From UHGV virus genome UHGV-0260700: a stretch of 5,875 bases of DNA. The stretch is one strand, 5' to 3'. Positions 1 through 5,875 of the stretch are shown here, one piece after another. The notes beneath the pieces were generated by a model, which was given only the letters and a program-made list of their open reading frames with translations, was not told where the DNA came from and ran no database searches. Within the stretch, counting starts at the first letter, position 1; each line of letters opens with the position of its first letter. The position numbers and the translations under genes were made by a program. The DNA is from a virus.

Positions 1-206
1 GGTTTCATGGGCAGAGCTTTGATCTTAATAAAACGCAAGTTCAGACTCACCGTGCGAGATTACGAAAAATCGGTATTGATATTGCTCAAAAATGCAATAT
101 TGCTAAGTTCTCTCCGGTTATCATGAAAGAAAGCCGCGAAATTCATGTTTCACAATGCGTTATTCCAGACTGGTATATTAAACCTTCTCATTTACGTGTA
201 GCTTAA
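1..206 (+). CDS. 3' end of replication initiator gene (gII, with nested gX), partial, start outside window
   Basis: Frame starting at position 3 is open to TAA at 204..206 (67 codons, ends ...DWYIKPSHLRVA). Assigned by synteny only, immediately upstream of the gV-position gene; I did not recognise the sequence itself. Confidence 0.55.
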   Translation, partial: FHGQSFDLNKTQVQTHRARLRKIGIDIAQKCNIAKFSPVIMKESREIHVSQCVIPDWYIKPSHLRVA

Positions 207-222
207 AACAGGAATATTAATT

Positions 223-540
223 ATGTCTCACTACGGATTATTTGTTAAAGGTAAAATGCTTGGTTCGCGCCAGCGCAATAAGATGAATAGTGATTTAGTT
301 TATAATGAAATTGGCGTCGGCATGGAAAAGCCTGATGGTTTTGGCGGCACGAAAACAGAACAATTAATTATTCGTGTTTCTTCTTCTCTCGTTAAGGCTG
401 GCGTAATGAATCAGGCTAATAGCCTTATTGGTAAACTGGTTCAGGTTCCTGTCTATGCTAAAGCATGGTCTTTTGACGGAAAGGATGGCATTACATACAA
501 CCTTTCTAATGATGGTGGTATTAGCGAAATAAAGGTTTGA
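223..540 (+). CDS. Putative ssDNA-binding protein at the gV position (105 aa)
   Basis: ORF 223..540 with AGGA 9 nt upstream of ATG; sits between the replication gene end and gVII/gIX/gVIII as gV does in Ff phages. Longer than Ff gVp (87 aa) and no similarity to M13 or IKe gVp that I can see; function is by position only. Confidence 0.55.
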   Translation: MSHYGLFVKGKMLGSRQRNKMNSDLVYNEIGVGMEKPDGFGGTKTEQLIIRVSSSLVKAGVMNQANSLIGKLVQVPVYAKAWSFDGKDGITYNLSNDGGISEIKV

Positions 541-542
541 CT

Positions 543-629
543 ATGGATGATGTTATTCAGGTTTTGATAGCGTCTGGCATCGTTATTTCTTTTGGCCTCG
601 GCGCGATTACTGCGGGGGTCTTTCGTTAA
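543..629 (+). CDS. VII: Minor coat protein pVII-like (28 aa, MDDVIQVLIASGIVISFGLGAITAGVFR)
   Basis: Not in the ORF track (too short). ATG at 543 three nt after the gV stop, AAGG upstream; small hydrophobic peptide like M13 pVII (33 aa); stop TAA 627..629 overlaps the next start. Confidence 0.6.
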   Translation: MDDVIQVLIASGIVISFGLGAITAGVFR

Positions 630-724
630 TGTATATCGTTTATTTCTTCGGGGCTTATACCTTTGGTTTTGCCCTTTTCTATGCGGTCGGTTCATTTAAA
701 TCATTTTCTGACCGATTAATGTAA
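629..724 (+). CDS. IX: Minor coat protein pIX-like (31 aa, MYIVYFFGAYTFGFALFYAVGSFKSFSDRLM)
   Basis: Not in the ORF track. ATG 629..631 overlaps the gVII stop as TAATG; hydrophobic peptide ending ...DRLM, compare M13 pIX ...FTRLMETSS; stop TAA 722..724. Confidence 0.6.
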   Translation: MYIVYFFGAYTFGFALFYAVGSFKSFSDRLM

Positions 725-743
725 CCTTAATGGAGTTATTTCT

Positions 744-986
744 ATGAAAATTCTGTCTACTGTTAAATCTAAAGTTGCTCTTGCTTCAACTGCGCTTTTT
801 GTTTCTGCAAGTTCTTTTGCGGCTGACGGCGCTACAGGCGGTACTGATTATGCAGGTCAGGCAATGGACGCTTTGTTGACTCAGGCAAATGATCTCATTG
901 GTAAAGTATGGCCTGTTGTTGTTGCTGTAGTTGGCGCAGGCCTGGCTATTCGTCTTTTTAAAAAGTTCTCTTCCAAAGCAGTTTGA
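744..986 (+). CDS. VIII: Major coat protein pVIII precursor (80 aa)
   Basis: GGAG 8 nt upstream of ATG; signal peptide ending SFA followed by an acidic amphipathic N-terminus, a hydrophobic core (VWPVVVAVVGAGLAI) and a basic C-terminus RLFKKFSSKAV, the last matching the IKe coat protein C-terminus and close to M13 (KLFKKFTSKAS). Confidence 0.92.
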   Translation: MKILSTVKSKVALASTALFVSASSFAADGATGGTDYAGQAMDALLTQANDLIGKVWPVVVAVVGAGLAIRLFKKFSSKAV

Positions 987-1001
987 TTTCCATTTTACAC
1001 A

Positions 1002-1020
1002 GGGGCAGATTCTGCCCCTT
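1002..1020 (+). terminator. Hairpin terminator after gVIII
   Basis: GGGGCA(1002..1007) / TGCCCC(1013..1018) stem with loop GATTC, followed by TT; the same position as the strong terminator after gene VIII in Ff phages. The T-tract is short. Confidence 0.45.
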
Positions 1021-1037
1021 CATCTAAGCGGGTCATT

Positions 1038-2252
1038 ATGAAACGCAAATTATTAGCCCTTTTATTTATTATTTCTCCAGCTTCTCATGCTGCTATATGG
1101 GATAGTTTAAGCCAAAGCACTATGGAGGTTGATGTTTGGTCTGTAAGAAACGAGACCACACATAAACAATATATAAATTCTGATATGCTTGCTTCTGGTT
1201 GTTCTCAAGCAAAAGAAAAGGCTAACGATTTTTTCACGAGAACCAAATCAATTTTTCAGGATGTGTATCCGCCAAATGCTGAGTATAGATTAGTCCTTGA
1301 TGATTCTTGTTCGTTTAGTTTGCCACCGGGCGAAAAAGATAGCTCTTGGAGAATAGAGACTACAATTAATGCAGATGTTCAAGTTTCAGTTCCTGATGAA
1401 ACATCACCCGAACCTACACCAGAAGAAGTTTGTCAGACTAAACAACCTGAAGATGGTGTATTTAATAATGTTTTTTCTGATTCTGGCAATCGTTATATCA
1501 ATTATGATGGTTGTGAGTATGAAGCAACAGGGGTAATTGTTTGTCAAAGTGACGGTACTGTTTGTGCTGCTACGTGGAAACCAACTGGGCGTGTTTCAGA
1601 TGGTTCACATAATTCATCATCACCTGCCGATGATAATAATGATAATGGTTCAGAAAATGGTGGGTCAGAGGGTGGGGATGATGGTTCTGGCGGTGGTAAC
1701 AATAATTCAGGGGGGAGTTCTGGCGGCTCTTCATTAAGTAAGCAGGATATGATTGACGCAGTTAACTCCGGTGTATCTGGGGCTTCGTCTAATGTTGCTG
1801 ATGAGATAAGAAAGAAACTCTCTGAGCCTGACACGAGCTTTCAGGATAAAGAACATGCTGACGCGCAAAAATCTAAATACCTAAGTGATATAACTGATTC
1901 CCTTAACAATATTACACGTGGTGCTGGACGTTATGCAGATCCATCCCGTGGTGATTATTATGGGCAAGGTGATTCTGCTTTAGATAGTGCTACAAGCCTT
2001 GCAGAAAGCAACCTGGGTATTTCTAAAGATTCCAATGGGATTTGGGATTTATTTTTAAATGAAACTAATGCCTTGCCAAATGGTGATGGTTGTTCTGATT
2101 TTATTATGTTTCCCGGAGAAATTTACCAGATAGATATTCAATGCGATAAGTTGCAGTCAATTAAAGATGCACTTTCATGGGTGTTTTACTGCATGACATT
2201 TTGGTATGTCTTTACTTCATTAACATCCTTGCTTAGAAAAGGGAGTGAATAA
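1038..2252 (+). CDS. III: Minor coat / adsorption protein pIII (404 aa)
   Basis: Signal peptide [18 protein letters not shown]; internal motif [34 protein letters not shown] resembling the M13 N1 (TolA-binding) motif DRYANYEGCLWNATGVVVCTGDETQCYGTWVPIG; Gly/Ser/Asn/Asp linker; C-terminus [22 protein letters not shown]...[24 protein letters not shown] resembling the M13 pIII C-terminus. Confidence 0.92.
1590..1727 (+). repeat. Low-complexity Gly/Ser/Asn/Asp-rich linker region inside gIII
   Basis: Residues about 185..230 of pIII ([44 protein letters not shown]) encoded by repetitive ggt/ggc/aat/gat-rich DNA; this produces the artefactual ORFs on both strands in the track. Confidence 0.6.
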
Positions 2253-2593
2253 TGCCGTTCCTATTGGGTATACCTGCATTGCTTAGATTTCTTATCGGTC
2301 TTGTTCCATTATCCCTTGGATATATTGCAAGTTTCTTAGCTCGCTTGGCGACTAAAACAGGAATAATTGCCTTTGCTCTGGTTACGTTAATCACATCTAC
2401 GGTCTTGTTGTTAGTTCAATATTTATCAGAGATTACTTTTAGTAGCCTTCCTGCTGACTTTTCTCATTTAATAGCATCTGTATTACCTGATCATTTTCAT
2501 GCCTGCGTAAATGTCATTATGGTTACTCGAATTAGTGTATTGATTTTCGATTTAAAAGAAAAATTTCTTGATTATGCAAACAGGGTGATTTAA
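2252..2593 (+). CDS. VI: Minor coat protein pVI (113 aa)
   Basis: Start overlaps the gIII stop (TAATG). [17 protein letters not shown]... aligns with M13 pVI MPVLLGIPLLLRFLGFLL... over its length. Confidence 0.85.
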   Translation: MPFLLGIPALLRFLIGLVPLSLGYIASFLARLATKTGIIAFALVTLITSTVLLLVQYLSEITFSSLPADFSHLIASVLPDHFHACVNVIMVTRISVLIFDLKEKFLDYANRVI

Positions 2594-3688
2594 ATGGCGG
2601 TTCATGTAGTAACAGGTAAATTAGGCTCAGGCAAGACACTTGTTAGTGTTTCCAGAATACAGGAGAGACTTGCTAAGGGTTGTCCTGTTGCCACTAATCT
2701 TGACCTTAAATTGCATAATATGCCTATGGTTGGGCGTTATGCGAAAAAAACGCGCGTTATTCGCGTTCCTGACAAACCTTCATTAAATGATTTGCTGGCT
2801 ATTGGCATTGGAAACACATCTTACGATGAATCCCGTAATGGCCTCCTTGTACTTGATGAATGTGGTACTTGGTTTAATTCCCGCTCATGGGGTGATAAAG
2901 ACAGACAACCTGTTATTGACTGGTTTTTACATGCCAGAAAATTAGGCTGGGATATTATATTTTTGATTCAGGATATTTCGATAATGGATAAGCAAGCTCG
3001 TTTGGCGCTTGCTGAGCATGTTGTTTATTGTCGCCGTTCAGATAAATTAAACATTCCTTTTGTTGGCTCCATTATGAATTTGGTTTCAGGGGCACGATTT
3101 TCTTTACCAAAGGTACACTTTGGCATTGTCAAATATGGTGATAATGTTAATTCAATCACTGTTGATAAATGGATATATACAGGAAAATCTCTTTATTCTG
3201 CTTACAATACCAAACAAGCGTTCACAGATAATTATCCTCATGGCGCATTTTCGCTTTTGCCACCATTTATCACGCACGGTCAATTTTCTGTTCACAGAGG
3301 ATTTAATTATTATATGCGCCTCACTAAAATTTATTTTCGCAAATCGAACCGTCTTATATTAATGCTTTCTTTTTTGGCGCTGGGGCTTGGGCTTGGTTTC
3401 TGGCTCCAGTCTGGAAAGAATGTTGATGAAATCTCAGCTATTAAATCTGCTTATGCTGAACAGGCGAGGGCGGTAACGCCTGATTCGTCCAGTGACTTAC
3501 CCCGACTTTCTATTAATTCTTTTTCACAACTTGGCTTTGACGTTTCCGTTACGTTTGTTGATGCTAAAGGTATGAAATATCAGTATTTTGATTTGATTAA
3601 AGATGGTTATTCCGTTGATATTAAAGATGCCTGTCGTATTGTTATTAGAAAAGGTCGTTATTTACAGACTGTTACCTGTCAGGAGTAA
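2594..3688 (+). CDS. I: Assembly protein pI (Zot-like ATPase, 364 aa)
   Basis: ATG directly follows the gVI stop (TAAATG). N-terminus MAVHVVTGKLGSGKTLVSV with Walker A GKLGSGKT, then LLVLDECGTWFN and WFLHARKLGWDIIFL, all near-identical to M13 pI; C-terminal membrane segment present. Confidence 0.95.
   Translation: MAVHVVTGKLGSGKTLVSVSRIQERLAKGCPVATNLDLKLHNMPMVGRYAKKTRVIRVPDKPSLNDLLAIGIGNTSYDESRNGLLVLDECGTWFNSRSWGDKDRQPVIDWFLHARKLGWDIIFLIQDISIMDKQARLALAEHVVYCRRSDKLNIPFVGSIMNLVSGARFSLPKVHFGIVKYGDNVNSITVDKWIYTGKSLYSAYNTKQAFTDNYPHGAFSLLPPFITHGQFSVHRGFNYYMRLTKIYFRKSNRLILMLSFLALGLGLGFWLQSGKNVDEISAIKSAYAEQARAVTPDSSSDLPRLSINSFSQLGFDVSVTFVDAKGMKYQYFDLIKDGYSVDIKDACRIVIRKGRYLQTVTCQE
3314..3688 (+). CDS. 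XI: Putative pXI, in-frame internal initiation product of gI (124 aa)
   Basis: In-frame ATG at 3314 (MRLTKIYFRKSNRLILMLSFLALG...) just before the membrane segment, corresponding to the M13 pXI start (MKLTKIYLKKFSRVL...); GAGG about 13 nt upstream. Inferred by analogy only. Confidence 0.5.
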   Translation: MRLTKIYFRKSNRLILMLSFLALGLGLGFWLQSGKNVDEISAIKSAYAEQARAVTPDSSSDLPRLSINSFSQLGFDVSVTFVDAKGMKYQYFDLIKDGYSVDIKDACRIVIRKGRYLQTVTCQE

Positions 3689-3695
3689 TATTATT

Positions 3696-4961
3696 ATGCG
3701 CTCTGTTATTGTTGCTTTTTTATTTGCCTGTTCATTCTGCGTTTCTGCTGAAACTGTTAATTTAAATAATTCATCTGTTCGCTCATTTGTTCAGTGGTAT
3801 TCTTCAAAAACTGGCAAGCCTGTTATTGTTAATCCTGATGTTAAAGGAAACGTAACCGTATTTAATGCTGATGTTAATCCAACAAATATTGATGATTTCT
3901 TTAAGTCTGTTCTGAATGCTAACGGGTTTGTCATGCTTTCTGGCAATCCTGCGGTAGTCTCTTTGCCGTCTAAATTACCTTCACAGATGGTTTCGGGTTC
4001 CGATGATTCTGATAACCAGTCTTATGATACTTTTCCTTCTGAGCCATCTTACCAGCCAGTACCTGTGGCGCTTACGGTCAGAAATTTTAAGCTGACAAAA
4101 GTTAGATCGTCCGATGTTCAGCAACTGGTTAAAATTTATCTTGATTCTAATGGCGGTGGTAATGTCGTGGATTATCCAGGCAATAACTCGCTGATTGTTT
4201 CTGCGCCTGACGAGCTGCTGCCGGTTCTGTCCGATTTTATCAATTCTGTGGATGTTGCCCGTGACCAAGTATTGATTCAGTCGCTGATGTTTGAAACCAG
4301 CCTATCCGATGGTGTTGATTTGTCGTTTGCTGCGGGTTCTGCGTCTGGCCATAAGGTGGCGGGGGGCTTTAATACTTCTGCGCTCGGCAGTGCGCTTTCC
4401 ACGGCTGGCGGCTCTTTTGGTATTTTTGATGGTAACGTACTGGCTTTGTCTCTGCGTGCCGTTCAGAGCAATTCACGCTCTAAGGTGATTTCAACGCCGC
4501 GCATCCTTACTCAGTCCGGTCAGACGGGTTACATTTCTGTAGGTAAGAACGTGCCGTTTATCACCGGAAAGGTAACGGGCGAATCTGCCGGGGTAAATAA
4601 TCCGTTCCAGACTATCGAACGTCATGATGTGGGTGTTTCTCTCAAGGTAACGCCTGTTGTCATGGGTAACGGGCAATTAGTTCTGACTATCGACACTCGC
4701 GCCGATTCAATCAGCAATGATGACCAGGCATCCGATATTATTACTAATCAGCGCCAGATTCAGACTACTGTTCAGATTAAGGATGGTCAGACATTGTTGC
4801 TTGGTGGTCTTATTGATTCATCTTCCAGTAATGCTGACCGTTCAGTGCCTTTTATCAGTAAAATTCCTCTTATCGGCTGGCTTTTCACGAGTAAGGCTGA
4901 CAGCAATGAGCAGCGCATCATGTATGTTCTCCTGACCGCCCATATCATTCGCGCGCTGTAA
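3696..4961 (+). CDS. IV: Secretin pIV, outer-membrane export channel (421 aa)
   Basis: AGGAG 10 nt upstream of ATG 3696. Signal peptide MRSVIVAFLFACSFCVSA; strong similarity to M13 pIV throughout (VPFITGKVTGESAGVNNPFQTIER, DGQTLLLGGL, VPFISKIPLIGWLF). The track ORF from 3603 extends upstream into gI and is not the real start. Confidence 0.95.
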   Translation: MRSVIVAFLFACSFCVSAETVNLNNSSVRSFVQWYSSKTGKPVIVNPDVKGNVTVFNADVNPTNIDDFFKSVLNANGFVMLSGNPAVVSLPSKLPSQMVSGSDDSDNQSYDTFPSEPSYQPVPVALTVRNFKLTKVRSSDVQQLVKIYLDSNGGGNVVDYPGNNSLIVSAPDELLPVLSDFINSVDVARDQVLIQSLMFETSLSDGVDLSFAAGSASGHKVAGGFNTSALGSALSTAGGSFGIFDGNVLALSLRAVQSNSRSKVISTPRILTQSGQTGYISVGKNVPFITGKVTGESAGVNNPFQTIERHDVGVSLKVTPVVMGNGQLVLTIDTRADSISNDDQASDIITNQRQIQTTVQIKDGQTLLLGGLIDSSSSNADRSVPFISKIPLIGWLFTSKADSNEQRIMYVLLTAHIIRAL

Positions 4962-4965
4962 TGGG

Positions 4966-4999
4966 TTGCGGGATGGGTGCGTTAAGCCCCGTCCCGTAA
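4966..4999 (+). other. Imperfect hairpin immediately after gIV; candidate packaging signal and/or gIV terminator
   Basis: Arms 4969..4977 (cgggatggg) and 4988..4996 (cccgtcccg) pair with one T-G mismatch, loop about 10 nt; occupies the position of hairpin A (packaging signal) in the Ff intergenic region but is much shorter. Confidence 0.4.
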
Positions 5000-5039
5000 A
5001 CCATGAAGCGGCATCGTGTTTTCACCGTCTGTTTGTATT

Positions 5040-5220
5040 CTTTTACGCTTTTCTTCCTGTCTGCGTTCTCTGTGGCCTGATTCGTCCAGCAGAATGGCGG
5101 GGGTTCCCTTTAGGGTTCCGCTATTGTGCTTGACGACACGTTGCAAGATAACCTTATTGCGGGGTGATGGTTCACGCAGTGGGCCATCGCCCTGTAAAGC
5201 AGGTTTTTGTTTTTTGGTGT
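5040..5220 (+). other. Intergenic-region segment homologous to the Ff minus-strand replication origin
   Basis: 5099..5120 GGGGGTTCCCTTTAGGGTTCCG versus f1 GGGGGCTCCCTTTAGGGTTCCG; 5162..5194 GGGTGATGGTTCACGCAGTGGGCCATCGCCCTG versus f1 GGGTGATGGTTCACGTAGTGGGCCATCGCCCTG (one mismatch), followed by GGTTTTT. f1 sequence recalled from memory, not computed. Confidence 0.7.
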
Positions 5221-5252
5221 TACGTGGTCTGATACTGCGGGGATTTCCGAGG

Positions 5253-5270
5253 ATGCGCACTGGTGCGCAT
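5253..5270. repeat. Perfect 8-bp inverted repeat with 2-nt spacer overlapping the XerC arm of dif
   Basis: ATGCGCAC (5253..5260), spacer TG, GTGCGCAT (5263..5270); the arms are exact reverse complements. Confidence 0.8.
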
Positions 5271-5289
5271 AATGTATATTATGTTAAAT
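5262..5289. other. dif: dif chromosome-dimer resolution site (XerC/XerD target), prophage right attachment junction
   Basis: GGTGCGCATAATGTATATTATGTTAAAT is identical to the canonical 28-bp Escherichia coli dif (XerC arm GGTGCGCATAA, spacer TGTATA, XerD arm TTATGTTAAAT). Phage-like sequence ends here and the following DNA has host character. Confidence 0.85.
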
Positions 5290-5484
5290 TGAATTTATGA
5301 CGCCCAATACAGGCTTACTCCCTTGACTCATAATGCATCCCTCGCCTTTTCTGCACGCCTTCCATCGTGCCCTGTGTGAATTCTGCAAACTGTTGGCGGT
5401 TATCCTGCGTCAGATTTCACGTAGCGCACGCATTAAAAACCCGGCCACTGTGACCGGATAAGCCGACGGGACCTGCGTTTTTCA

Positions 5485-5875
5485 CTATCTGGCGGCAATT
5501 ACCGCATCTGCAATTTCCACAAAACCAGCACCTCCCGGGCCACGGGTAATCCACTGCGGAGGTTTCGGGATTTGATCAAGGTAATCTGATACCGTGCTCA
5601 CTCCAACCGTATGTTCAAAGAATGAAAACATCGGCGCATCATTCGTCGAGTCGCCGCTATACAATACGGCAGAACGTTCGGCATCAATGTCGAGATCGTA
5701 AAAATCCCTGAGCACTCGTCGGGCCATAGATAACTTGTCATATTCTCCAGACCAGCCAAGAATCCAGAGATTGTTTACGGTGGTTGTAGCACCTGCTTGC
5801 GTCAATGCGTTAAGTATTAATGAACACTGATGGGCTTCTGGCGGTTTAGCAAAGGCAATGGACGTCATCCTGAAA
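5485..5875 (-). CDS. HAD-superfamily hydrolase (Cof-type phosphatase-like), C-terminal part; start lies beyond the window end
   Basis: Minus-strand ORF ending at TAG (5485..5487), open to the window edge; contains the HAD motif-IV-like YSGDSTNDAPMF. Codon usage and GC differ from the phage genes. Confidence 0.65.
   Translation of the reverse strand, partial: FRMTSIAFAKPPEAHQCSLILNALTQAGATTTVNNLWILGWSGEYDKLSMARRVLRDFYDLDIDAERSAVLYSGDSTNDAPMFSFFEHTVGVSTVSDYLDQIPKPPQWITRGPGGAGFVEIADAVIAAR

Follow-up and report, generated by a model that had tools for sequence, protein, structure and literature searches.

A partial HAD-IIB hydrolase gene of Citrobacter koseri type beside a filamentous prophage at dif

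The prophage junction and its non-coding spacer

The whole stretch of DNA analysed here (5,875 nt, UHGV-0260700; hereafter the window) begins with an element (1-5261) that is a filamentous prophage encoding G5P, G8P, G3P, DUF5455/g6p, a Zot-like pI and a pIV secretin. Its right junction is the dif site at 5262..5289 (strand not assigned), which agrees with the E. coli dif consensus GGTGCGCATAATGTATATTATGTTAAAT at all 28 nt and consists of the XerC arm GGTGCGCATAA, the centre TGTATA and the XerD arm TTATGTTAAAT. The first-pass annotation had described a host flank that starts beside dif at position 5290 and contains a HAD-family hydrolase gene truncated by the window. Since the dif consensus ends at 5289, the flank indeed begins at 5290, past the XerD arm.

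Between dif and the stop codon of the HAD gene there is a non-coding spacer of 195 nt (5290..5484), delimited by alignments and BLAST boundaries. Its dif-proximal part (5290-5403) was common to C. koseri-type chromosomal contigs and was absent from plasmid islands carrying the gene and from Enterobacteriaceae bacterium G50. The remainder (from approximately 5401/5423 to 5484) represents the 3' untranslated region of the HAD gene and accompanied this gene everywhere. A 42-aa open reading frame on the plus strand within the spacer (5333-5461) is unsupported, and an Rfam scan of the window yielded no family at gathering score.

On the minus strand, the spacer contains a terminator-like hairpin (5429..5459) about 26 nt past the HAD stop codon, in which a T run follows the stem-loop at 5459-5439. 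In a consensus scan it had nine base pairs, five of them G-C, a loop of 3 and the tail TTTTAATGCG. The terminator scan returned 2 such sites against 1.0 in shuffled sequences, which alone is only suggestive. The hairpin was also kept in the plasmid and G50 copies of the locus, and its position after the stop codon together with this conservation makes it a likely transcription terminator of the HAD gene. An exact 25-mer of the spacer, ATGACGCCCAATACAGGCTTACTCC, had no match among species-representative genomes; yet it was present in the C. koseri contigs retrieved, and its absence from the former is therefore uninformative on species; the representative may lack it or carry a variant, or the scan may have overlooked it.

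The HAD-IIB gene fragment

The rest of the flank (5485..5875, minus strand) is the 3' half of a gene for a HAD-IIB hydrolase, with the stop codon at 5485-5487 (cta on the plus strand) and residues 131-259 encoded at 5488-5874. The frame comprises 129 codons and is open to the last full codon (5872-5874). Because two sense codons (Phe and Arg) precede the first in-frame ATG (5866-5868), the gene evidently runs off the window. The 129-residue translation is identical to residues 131-259 of two alleles, P0204 and P0206 (the latter WP_200090611.1), an agreement well above anything expected by chance. P0204 is a protein of 259 aa annotated as 'HAD-IIB family hydrolase [Citrobacter koseri]' (UniRef A0A078LHB6_CITKO; ASE84711.1, ATF97360.1 and others) and was found on 376 contigs of up to 5.09 Mb. 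The truncated HAD-family hydrolase was thus correctly recognized from the start, and its assignment can be refined to subfamily IIB.

All models matched by the fragment were HAD-IIB models, but both its match to TIGR01484 (HAD-SF-IIB; E=5.6e-6, 26.5 bits) and a weak one to Pfam Hydrolase_3 stayed below the respective cut-offs, because only half of the protein is present. Full-length P0204 and P0206 scored 60.7 and 59.7 bits against the TIGR01484 cut-off of 41.8, in an alignment covering profile positions 2-221 of 221, cap region included. The product is a predicted HAD-IIB phosphatase, and its windowed part should correspond to the second half of the C2 cap plus the C-terminal part of the Rossmann-like core.

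Motif IV of HAD proteins carries two Mg2+-coordinating aspartates. Here it reads GDSTND (residues 204-209; 5638..5655, minus strand) and aligns with GDSNND of Thermoplasma TA0175 and with GDSLND of mannosyl-3-phosphoglycerate phosphatase. Lys177 within EYDKLS (codon 5734..5736, minus strand) was aligned by phmmer with the DK of TA0175, and this pairwise alignment points to it as the motif III lysine. Motif I (DMDET, residues 21-25) and motif II (PVTAAP, 52-57) are situated outside the window; both are present in P0204, in P0206 and in the source scaffold of the window, where a gap of 10 Ns separates them from the windowed part. By analogy with its family, the protein would act as a Mg2+-dependent phosphomonoesterase that uses the lysine of motif III, the aspartates of motif IV and, as nucleophile, the Asp of motif I (DMDET).

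Motifs I, III and IV could be aligned with those of the two nearest characterised relatives, namely archaeal phosphoglycolate phosphatase TA0175 (PDB 1kyt/1l6r; E=7e-5) and mannosyl-3-phosphoglycerate phosphatase (PDB 3ztw; TIGR01486; E=4.5e-3), both of which belong by sequence to the same HAD-IIB fold class. As these similarities are very weak, substrate specificity is not transferable from either enzyme. Furthermore, the scores fell short of the equivalog/subfamily cut-offs (NF002245 / TIGR01487, TIGR01486 / TIGR02461: 43.1 vs 198, 37.1 vs 122.75, 43.1 vs 164.75 and 32.6 vs 244.35 bits).

Source scaffold and integrity of the gene

Over all of its 5875 nt, the window is 100% identical to positions 5596-11470 (reverse strand) of a 13,276-nt metagenome scaffold (L094; ENA ERZ28661169 scaffold_2365). 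The sample label of this scaffold, YACH19-1_SAMD00114805, presumably refers to a human gut metagenome series. L094 contains three gaps of 10 Ns (approximately 881-890, 5552-5561 and 11471-11480), and the window occupies the interval from the second to the third one. The second gap interrupts the HAD gene at a distance of 35 nt from the window end and caused the gene caller to split the gene into pieces of 133 and 127 aa. When the Ns are replaced by the 8 nt seen in all relatives, a 780-nt frame results, whose product P0206 is intact in three Citrobacter assemblies.

It could be argued instead that the frame is a decaying pseudogene in the source strain and that the 127-codon ORF (5485-5868) is its remnant. 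On 12 contigs the gene caller lists the 127-aa ORF as a gene of its own, and damaged copies do occur: L093/L095 carry a GAA>TAA nonsense codon, Enterobacteriaceae bacterium G50 (L012) a TAC>TAA change plus a 10-bp deletion, L005, L096 and L097/L101 deletions, and C. freundii complex sp. CFNIH2 a relocated fragment. However, the split coincides with the 10-N gap, both sides are open and the frames join once the 8 nt are restored, the reconstructed protein is found intact in isolates, and intact 259-aa alleles are far commoner (376+44+34+30 contigs). A look-up by the exact 127-aa sequence can moreover find broken or gapped alleles only. We therefore regard decay in the source strain as unlikely and prefer an intact gene interrupted by the assembly gap. 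The idea of a pseudogene had come from a homologue search with the 129-aa fragment, which gave almost only short proteins, together with the 127-aa look-up, and it was dropped once intact alleles were shown to be dominant.

Two independent metagenome scaffolds share the spot of the 10-N gap in HAD (L094 5552-5561 and L100 1098-1107). This spot corresponds to the AAAAAGGG stretch that directly precedes the GAA/TAA codon, which is polymorphic among isolates, and mixtures of strains may break the assembly there.

A minority of C. koseri-type contigs bear independent lesions on the XerD side of dif (L005 13285-13300, L096 5881-6076, L097 6441-6505 and L093 9959-9961). The lesions comprise deletion of the C-terminal half of HAD, a deletion that joins the enolase gene to mid-HAD, one of ~8.5 kb that joins hipA to the MTSIAF codon, and the GAA>TAA nonsense mutation; dif and the adjacent 114 nt are retained in all of them.

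Chromosomal neighbourhood and host of the flank

Beyond HAD, L094 continues with a gene of the USP family, a second enolase gene and MutS-related genes. Two isolate contigs, L093 (GCA_010588075.1, 442 kb) and L005 (GCA_045727665.1, 502 kb), match it collinearly at 98.8% and extend further to digH, hipBA and a chemoreceptor gene. The local order in C. koseri is MCP, hipBA, digH, a fluoride riboswitch with two MutS-related genes, the second enolase, USP with another fluoride riboswitch, HAD-IIB, dif, acetyltransferases, GFA and tagaturonate reductase. The gene studied here and that of C. koseri HAD-IIB (A0A078LHB6_CITKO) thus agree in their neighbours (USP, second enolase, MutS-related pair) and in their place beside dif, and no difference between the two is detectable in the windowed part.

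The gene next to dif had initially been judged foreign to the dif neighbourhood of E. coli K-12, with the suggestion that the host may be another strain or species, and both suppositions proved right. In 5,426 complete E. coli genomes, the flank had no chromosomal match beyond dif; the sole longer E. coli match was to plasmid p027_SK3a (293 kb, 96.1%). The L094 USP is an exact match to a C. koseri protein present on 602 contigs, and the enolase an exact Citrobacter match. Similarly, L093 and L005 encode exact matches to DigH of C. koseri (394 contigs), HipA of C. koseri and tagaturonate reductase of Citrobacter / C. koseri; digH of L005 is ~76% identical to that of E. coli. In E. coli loci with related prophages, dif is located between hipBA and ydeT-type fimbrial genes.

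Chromosomal contigs matched 5261-5875 at 98.4% and 5278-5875 at 100%. As for the gene fragment itself (5485..5875), its DNA was 100% identical in L094, L092, L098 and L099 and 98.4% identical in the C. koseri isolate contig L093. A relocated fragment in C. freundii complex sp. CFNIH2 likewise matches the 598 nt of 5278-5875 at 100%, and the flank is for this reason not strictly unique to C. koseri. Furthermore, L094 ends at the left dif-like site of the prophage and has no left host flank, so that the species call rests on the right flank only. With a probability of about 0.92, we consider 5290-5875 to be terminus chromosomal DNA of C. koseri or of a very close Citrobacter lineage, situated directly on the XerD-arm side of dif.

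The relocated fragment is a piece of 708 bp at L092 9886-10591 (CP025757.1, C. freundii complex sp. CFNIH2, at ~4.603 Mb), which consists of the 3' 60% of HAD, the spacer and the last 12 nt of dif (ATTATGTTAAAT). The same piece, 100% identical to window 5278-5875, is present in the metagenome contigs L098 and L099. In CFNIH2 it is flanked by ycgJ and a resolvase gene and has no intact dif within 20 kb; its exact-match neighbours VirK and YcgJ occur in some C. koseri genomes as well.

Copies of the gene on plasmids

Part of the flank also occurs on large plasmids. Positions 5423-5875 were found at 95-96% identity in 14 plasmids of 134-359 kb from Citrobacter, Klebsiella, Enterobacter, Salmonella and E. 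coli. In the plasmid islands, a riboswitch is followed on one strand by the genes for ClC-F, DUF190 and HAD, then by PAP2, and then by a riboswitch with PPase, USP, eno, gpmA, crcB and a P-type ATPase. The plasmid HAD-IIB proteins (WP_020996177.1 / WP_046499061.1, for example on p027_SK3a and the C. amalonaticus Y19 plasmid) share 256/259 residues with the chromosomal one, with 96% DNA identity over 5423-5875. The plasmid copies resemble those of C. koseri in having the same 3' UTR and terminator hairpin, with riboswitch-controlled USP-enolase genes nearby. They differ in that HAD follows ClC-F and DUF190 away from dif on plasmids, whereas in C. koseri it is oriented divergently to the riboswitch-USP-eno unit. 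The 10-kb C. koseri stretches examined contained no ClC-F, DUF190, PAP2, PPase, gpmA or crcB. A ppaC-uspA-eno-gpmA-crcB operon related to the plasmid island has been studied experimentally in GI3 of Enterobacter cloacae FRM (PMC5533749); a HAD gene is mentioned 0 times in that paper.

These copies raise the question whether the flank itself comes from a large conjugative or mobilizable plasmid with a fluoride-resistance island, in which case the phage would occupy a plasmid dimer-resolution site instead of chromosomal dif. The 14 matches, and an island in which HAD follows ClC-F and DUF190 and which includes two fluoride riboswitches, PAP2, PPase, USP, eno, gpmA and crcB, would fit this. However, their identity of 95-96% is lower than the 98.4-100% of chromosomal contigs, and the plasmid match stops at 5423, so that the dif-proximal ~130 nt are missing and no dif adjoins the gene on plasmids. 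The dif-proximal positions 5290-5422 were seen beside an intact dif only in C. koseri-type contigs. In addition, L094 runs on into USP-eno-MutS-related genes collinear at 98.8% with the 442-502 kb C. koseri contigs that carry digH and hipBA, and the FtsK-orienting motifs described below converge on the site. We give next to no credence to a plasmid source; the flank is most readily assigned to a chromosome, and a match to a plasmid or vector backbone, which the first-pass annotation had named as the outcome that would speak against its view, did not hold up.

The dif site in the replication terminus

An intact dif is present at the homologous position of L094 and of the other loci compared. 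Two C. koseri-type contigs, L096 and L097, have no prophage here. In these empty sites, dif differs from the consensus by one mismatch (A at position 1) and is followed by the same flank; the gene order is the HAD flank, dif and then the acetyltransferase/GFA genes which lie left of the prophage in L005. Lysogens have a G at dif position 1 where empty C. koseri sites have an A, and this G could be imagined to come from a phage-derived XerC arm. This explanation was rejected in favour of a strain polymorphism, because the left junction of L005 also has a G beside host DNA.

Further evidence for the position of the site was obtained from KOPS motifs (GGGNAGGG), which orient FtsK and were counted on both sides of dif in 11 loci. 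In all 11 loci they converge on dif, with 14 forward and 1 reverse motifs on the left and 0 forward and 17 reverse on the right, the loci being related and not independent. The source scaffold L094 has 1/0 (forward/reverse) on the left and 0/2 on the right, these per-locus counts being small, and the HAD side of C. koseri-type loci has 0 forward and 1-2 reverse motifs. The empty C. koseri sites (HAD-dif-acetyltransferases) and the converging KOPS place the prophage, as far as sequence can tell, at the dif of the replication terminus. The expectation that identification of the flank would assign the prophage to the terminus of a specific host is in agreement with these data and with the C. koseri protein matches.

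In our model, the HAD gene is transcribed towards dif, where a UPφ-type filamentous prophage has entered by XerCD recombination. Such integration puts the phage DNA on the XerC side and leaves the HAD flank untouched.

The neighbouring filamentous prophage

The isolate contigs L093 and L005 contain related prophages at the same junction, L093 with two copies in tandem. In the aligned part, prophages from C. koseri, E. coli and Salmonella are 92-94.5% identical to that of the window, and the 364-aa pI protein is identical throughout. The window prophage (1-5261) is 99.9% identical to dif copies in an E. coli draft (L004 7408-12705, GCA_019656475.1) and in a gut metagenome contig of the C. freundii complex (L006 7408-12696). 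Essentially one phage genotype is thus found in three host species.

At their far junction, the prophages end with a partial dif repeat, GGTGCGCATAATGT(A/G)(c/t)gactcgTTATGTTgAAA, in which the XerC arm is followed by an altered centre and a degenerate XerD arm (L094 13263-13276; L005 4547; L004 5612; L093 18547). A search of a phage collection gave no match to the flank, and only the pIV gene matched, at only ~80%, to IKe and PEar phages.

Prophages of the UPφ group have been described as occupants of dif in E. coli, C. koseri, K. pneumoniae, S. enterica and Y. enterocolitica (Shapiro & Putonti 2020, PMC7307601), and members from E. coli, C. koseri, Salmonella and Klebsiella share >98% identity (PMC7307601). 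The window element has in common with them the gene series g2p-g5p-g7p-g8p-g3p-g6p-pI(Zot)-pIV, the dif site and the partial dif repeat at the far end (PMC7307601). Its gene content, integration site and host range fit the UPφ group; Ypfφ and CUS-type prophages are more distant kin.

Given that L094 is a metagenome scaffold with N gaps, the phage-dif-HAD join might also be an assembly artefact, in which the prophage of a co-resident E. coli or C. freundii-complex strain was joined through dif to the flank of a non-lysogenic C. koseri. The 99.9% identical prophage copies were retrieved from E. coli (L004) and the C. freundii complex (L006), whereas the prophages of the C. koseri isolates (L093, L005) are 92-94.5% identical, and L094 alone shows this precise phage variant next to a C. 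koseri flank. However, the lysogen junction and the empty C. koseri site share only ~30 nt (all of dif except its first base, and 'tga'), which is short for modern assemblers to collapse. Related prophages occupy exactly the same junction in C. koseri isolates, and the published identity of >98% among UPφ prophages extends across genera (PMC7307601). We thus consider a chimeric join very unlikely, and even if it were true, 5290-5875 would still be C. koseri DNA. A genuine junction between the prophage and the C. koseri terminus is the reading we retain.

Relatives of the HAD gene and the link to fluoride

In Enterobacteriaceae, the HAD gene is rare: among species-representative genomes, it was found in Enterobacteriaceae bacterium G50 (97% protein identity) and Klebsiella indica (84%). 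Other relatives of the protein belong to Rhizobiales and Burkholderiales and are at most 76% identical. In G50, the same gene (96% DNA identity; L012 9611-10621, JALNTX010000006.1) likewise adjoins the XerD side of dif; its 111-nt dif-proximal spacer is unrelated, and the gene is the pseudogene mentioned above.

Fluoride riboswitches (RF01734) were detected at L094 4928-5002 (minus strand) and at L093 4160-4222 (plus strand) and 9328-9402 (minus strand). In the C. koseri terminus, one of them precedes the pair of MutS-related (MutS_V) genes, and the other precedes USP and the second enolase. The riboswitch nearest to HAD (L094 4928-5002) faces away from it, towards USP-eno, and no RF01734 was found upstream of HAD on its own strand in C. 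koseri, i.e. the gene has no such riboswitch leader there. On the plasmids, a riboswitch precedes ClC-F-DUF190, and HAD follows 339 nt further downstream.

To what extent the gene and fluoride belong together was assessed at 78 homologue loci (55-84% identity). ClC-F plus CrcB were encoded within 10 kb in 1/78, and the MutS-related pair in 1/78, which does not amount to a conserved fluoride linkage. A clue to the substrate was sought in the same neighbourhoods and rejected: no neighbour family occurred in more than 20 of the 78 loci (Rhizobiales, Burkholderiales and others), and the common neighbours were generic, such as ABC transporter parts, a sensor kinase, an AMP-binding enzyme and an AraC regulator. 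As fluoride genes are almost never near and no neighbour family is conserved, the association of HAD with fluoride looks like co-transfer in enterobacterial islands and not like a family-wide functional link. Because the same gene (95-96%) stands at the edge of the plasmid fluoride-resistance islands, it was probably acquired together with fluoride-responsive genes.

About a role of HAD in fluoride tolerance, we can only speculate. In such a scenario, HAD-IIB would be a working component of mobile fluoride-tolerance islands, for example a phosphatase replacing a housekeeping enzyme inhibited by fluoride, and its site beside dif in C. koseri and G50 would record acquisition of an island at the terminus, followed by recurrent deletions on the XerD side. 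We find this scenario rather doubtful, and co-transfer is the interpretation we prefer.

Conclusions

The HAD gene, the spacer and the dif-prophage setting are ordinary and already known or annotated, with nothing unexpected in sequence, position or context. Two leads may be mildly useful, namely that HAD travels together with fluoride-resistance islands and that a minority of strains carry deletions next to dif. The main implication is that the host of the prophage would be C. koseri and not E. coli, and its site the chromosomal dif. This host assignment should be useful for the cataloguing of UPφ-type filamentous prophages and of their spread across genera.
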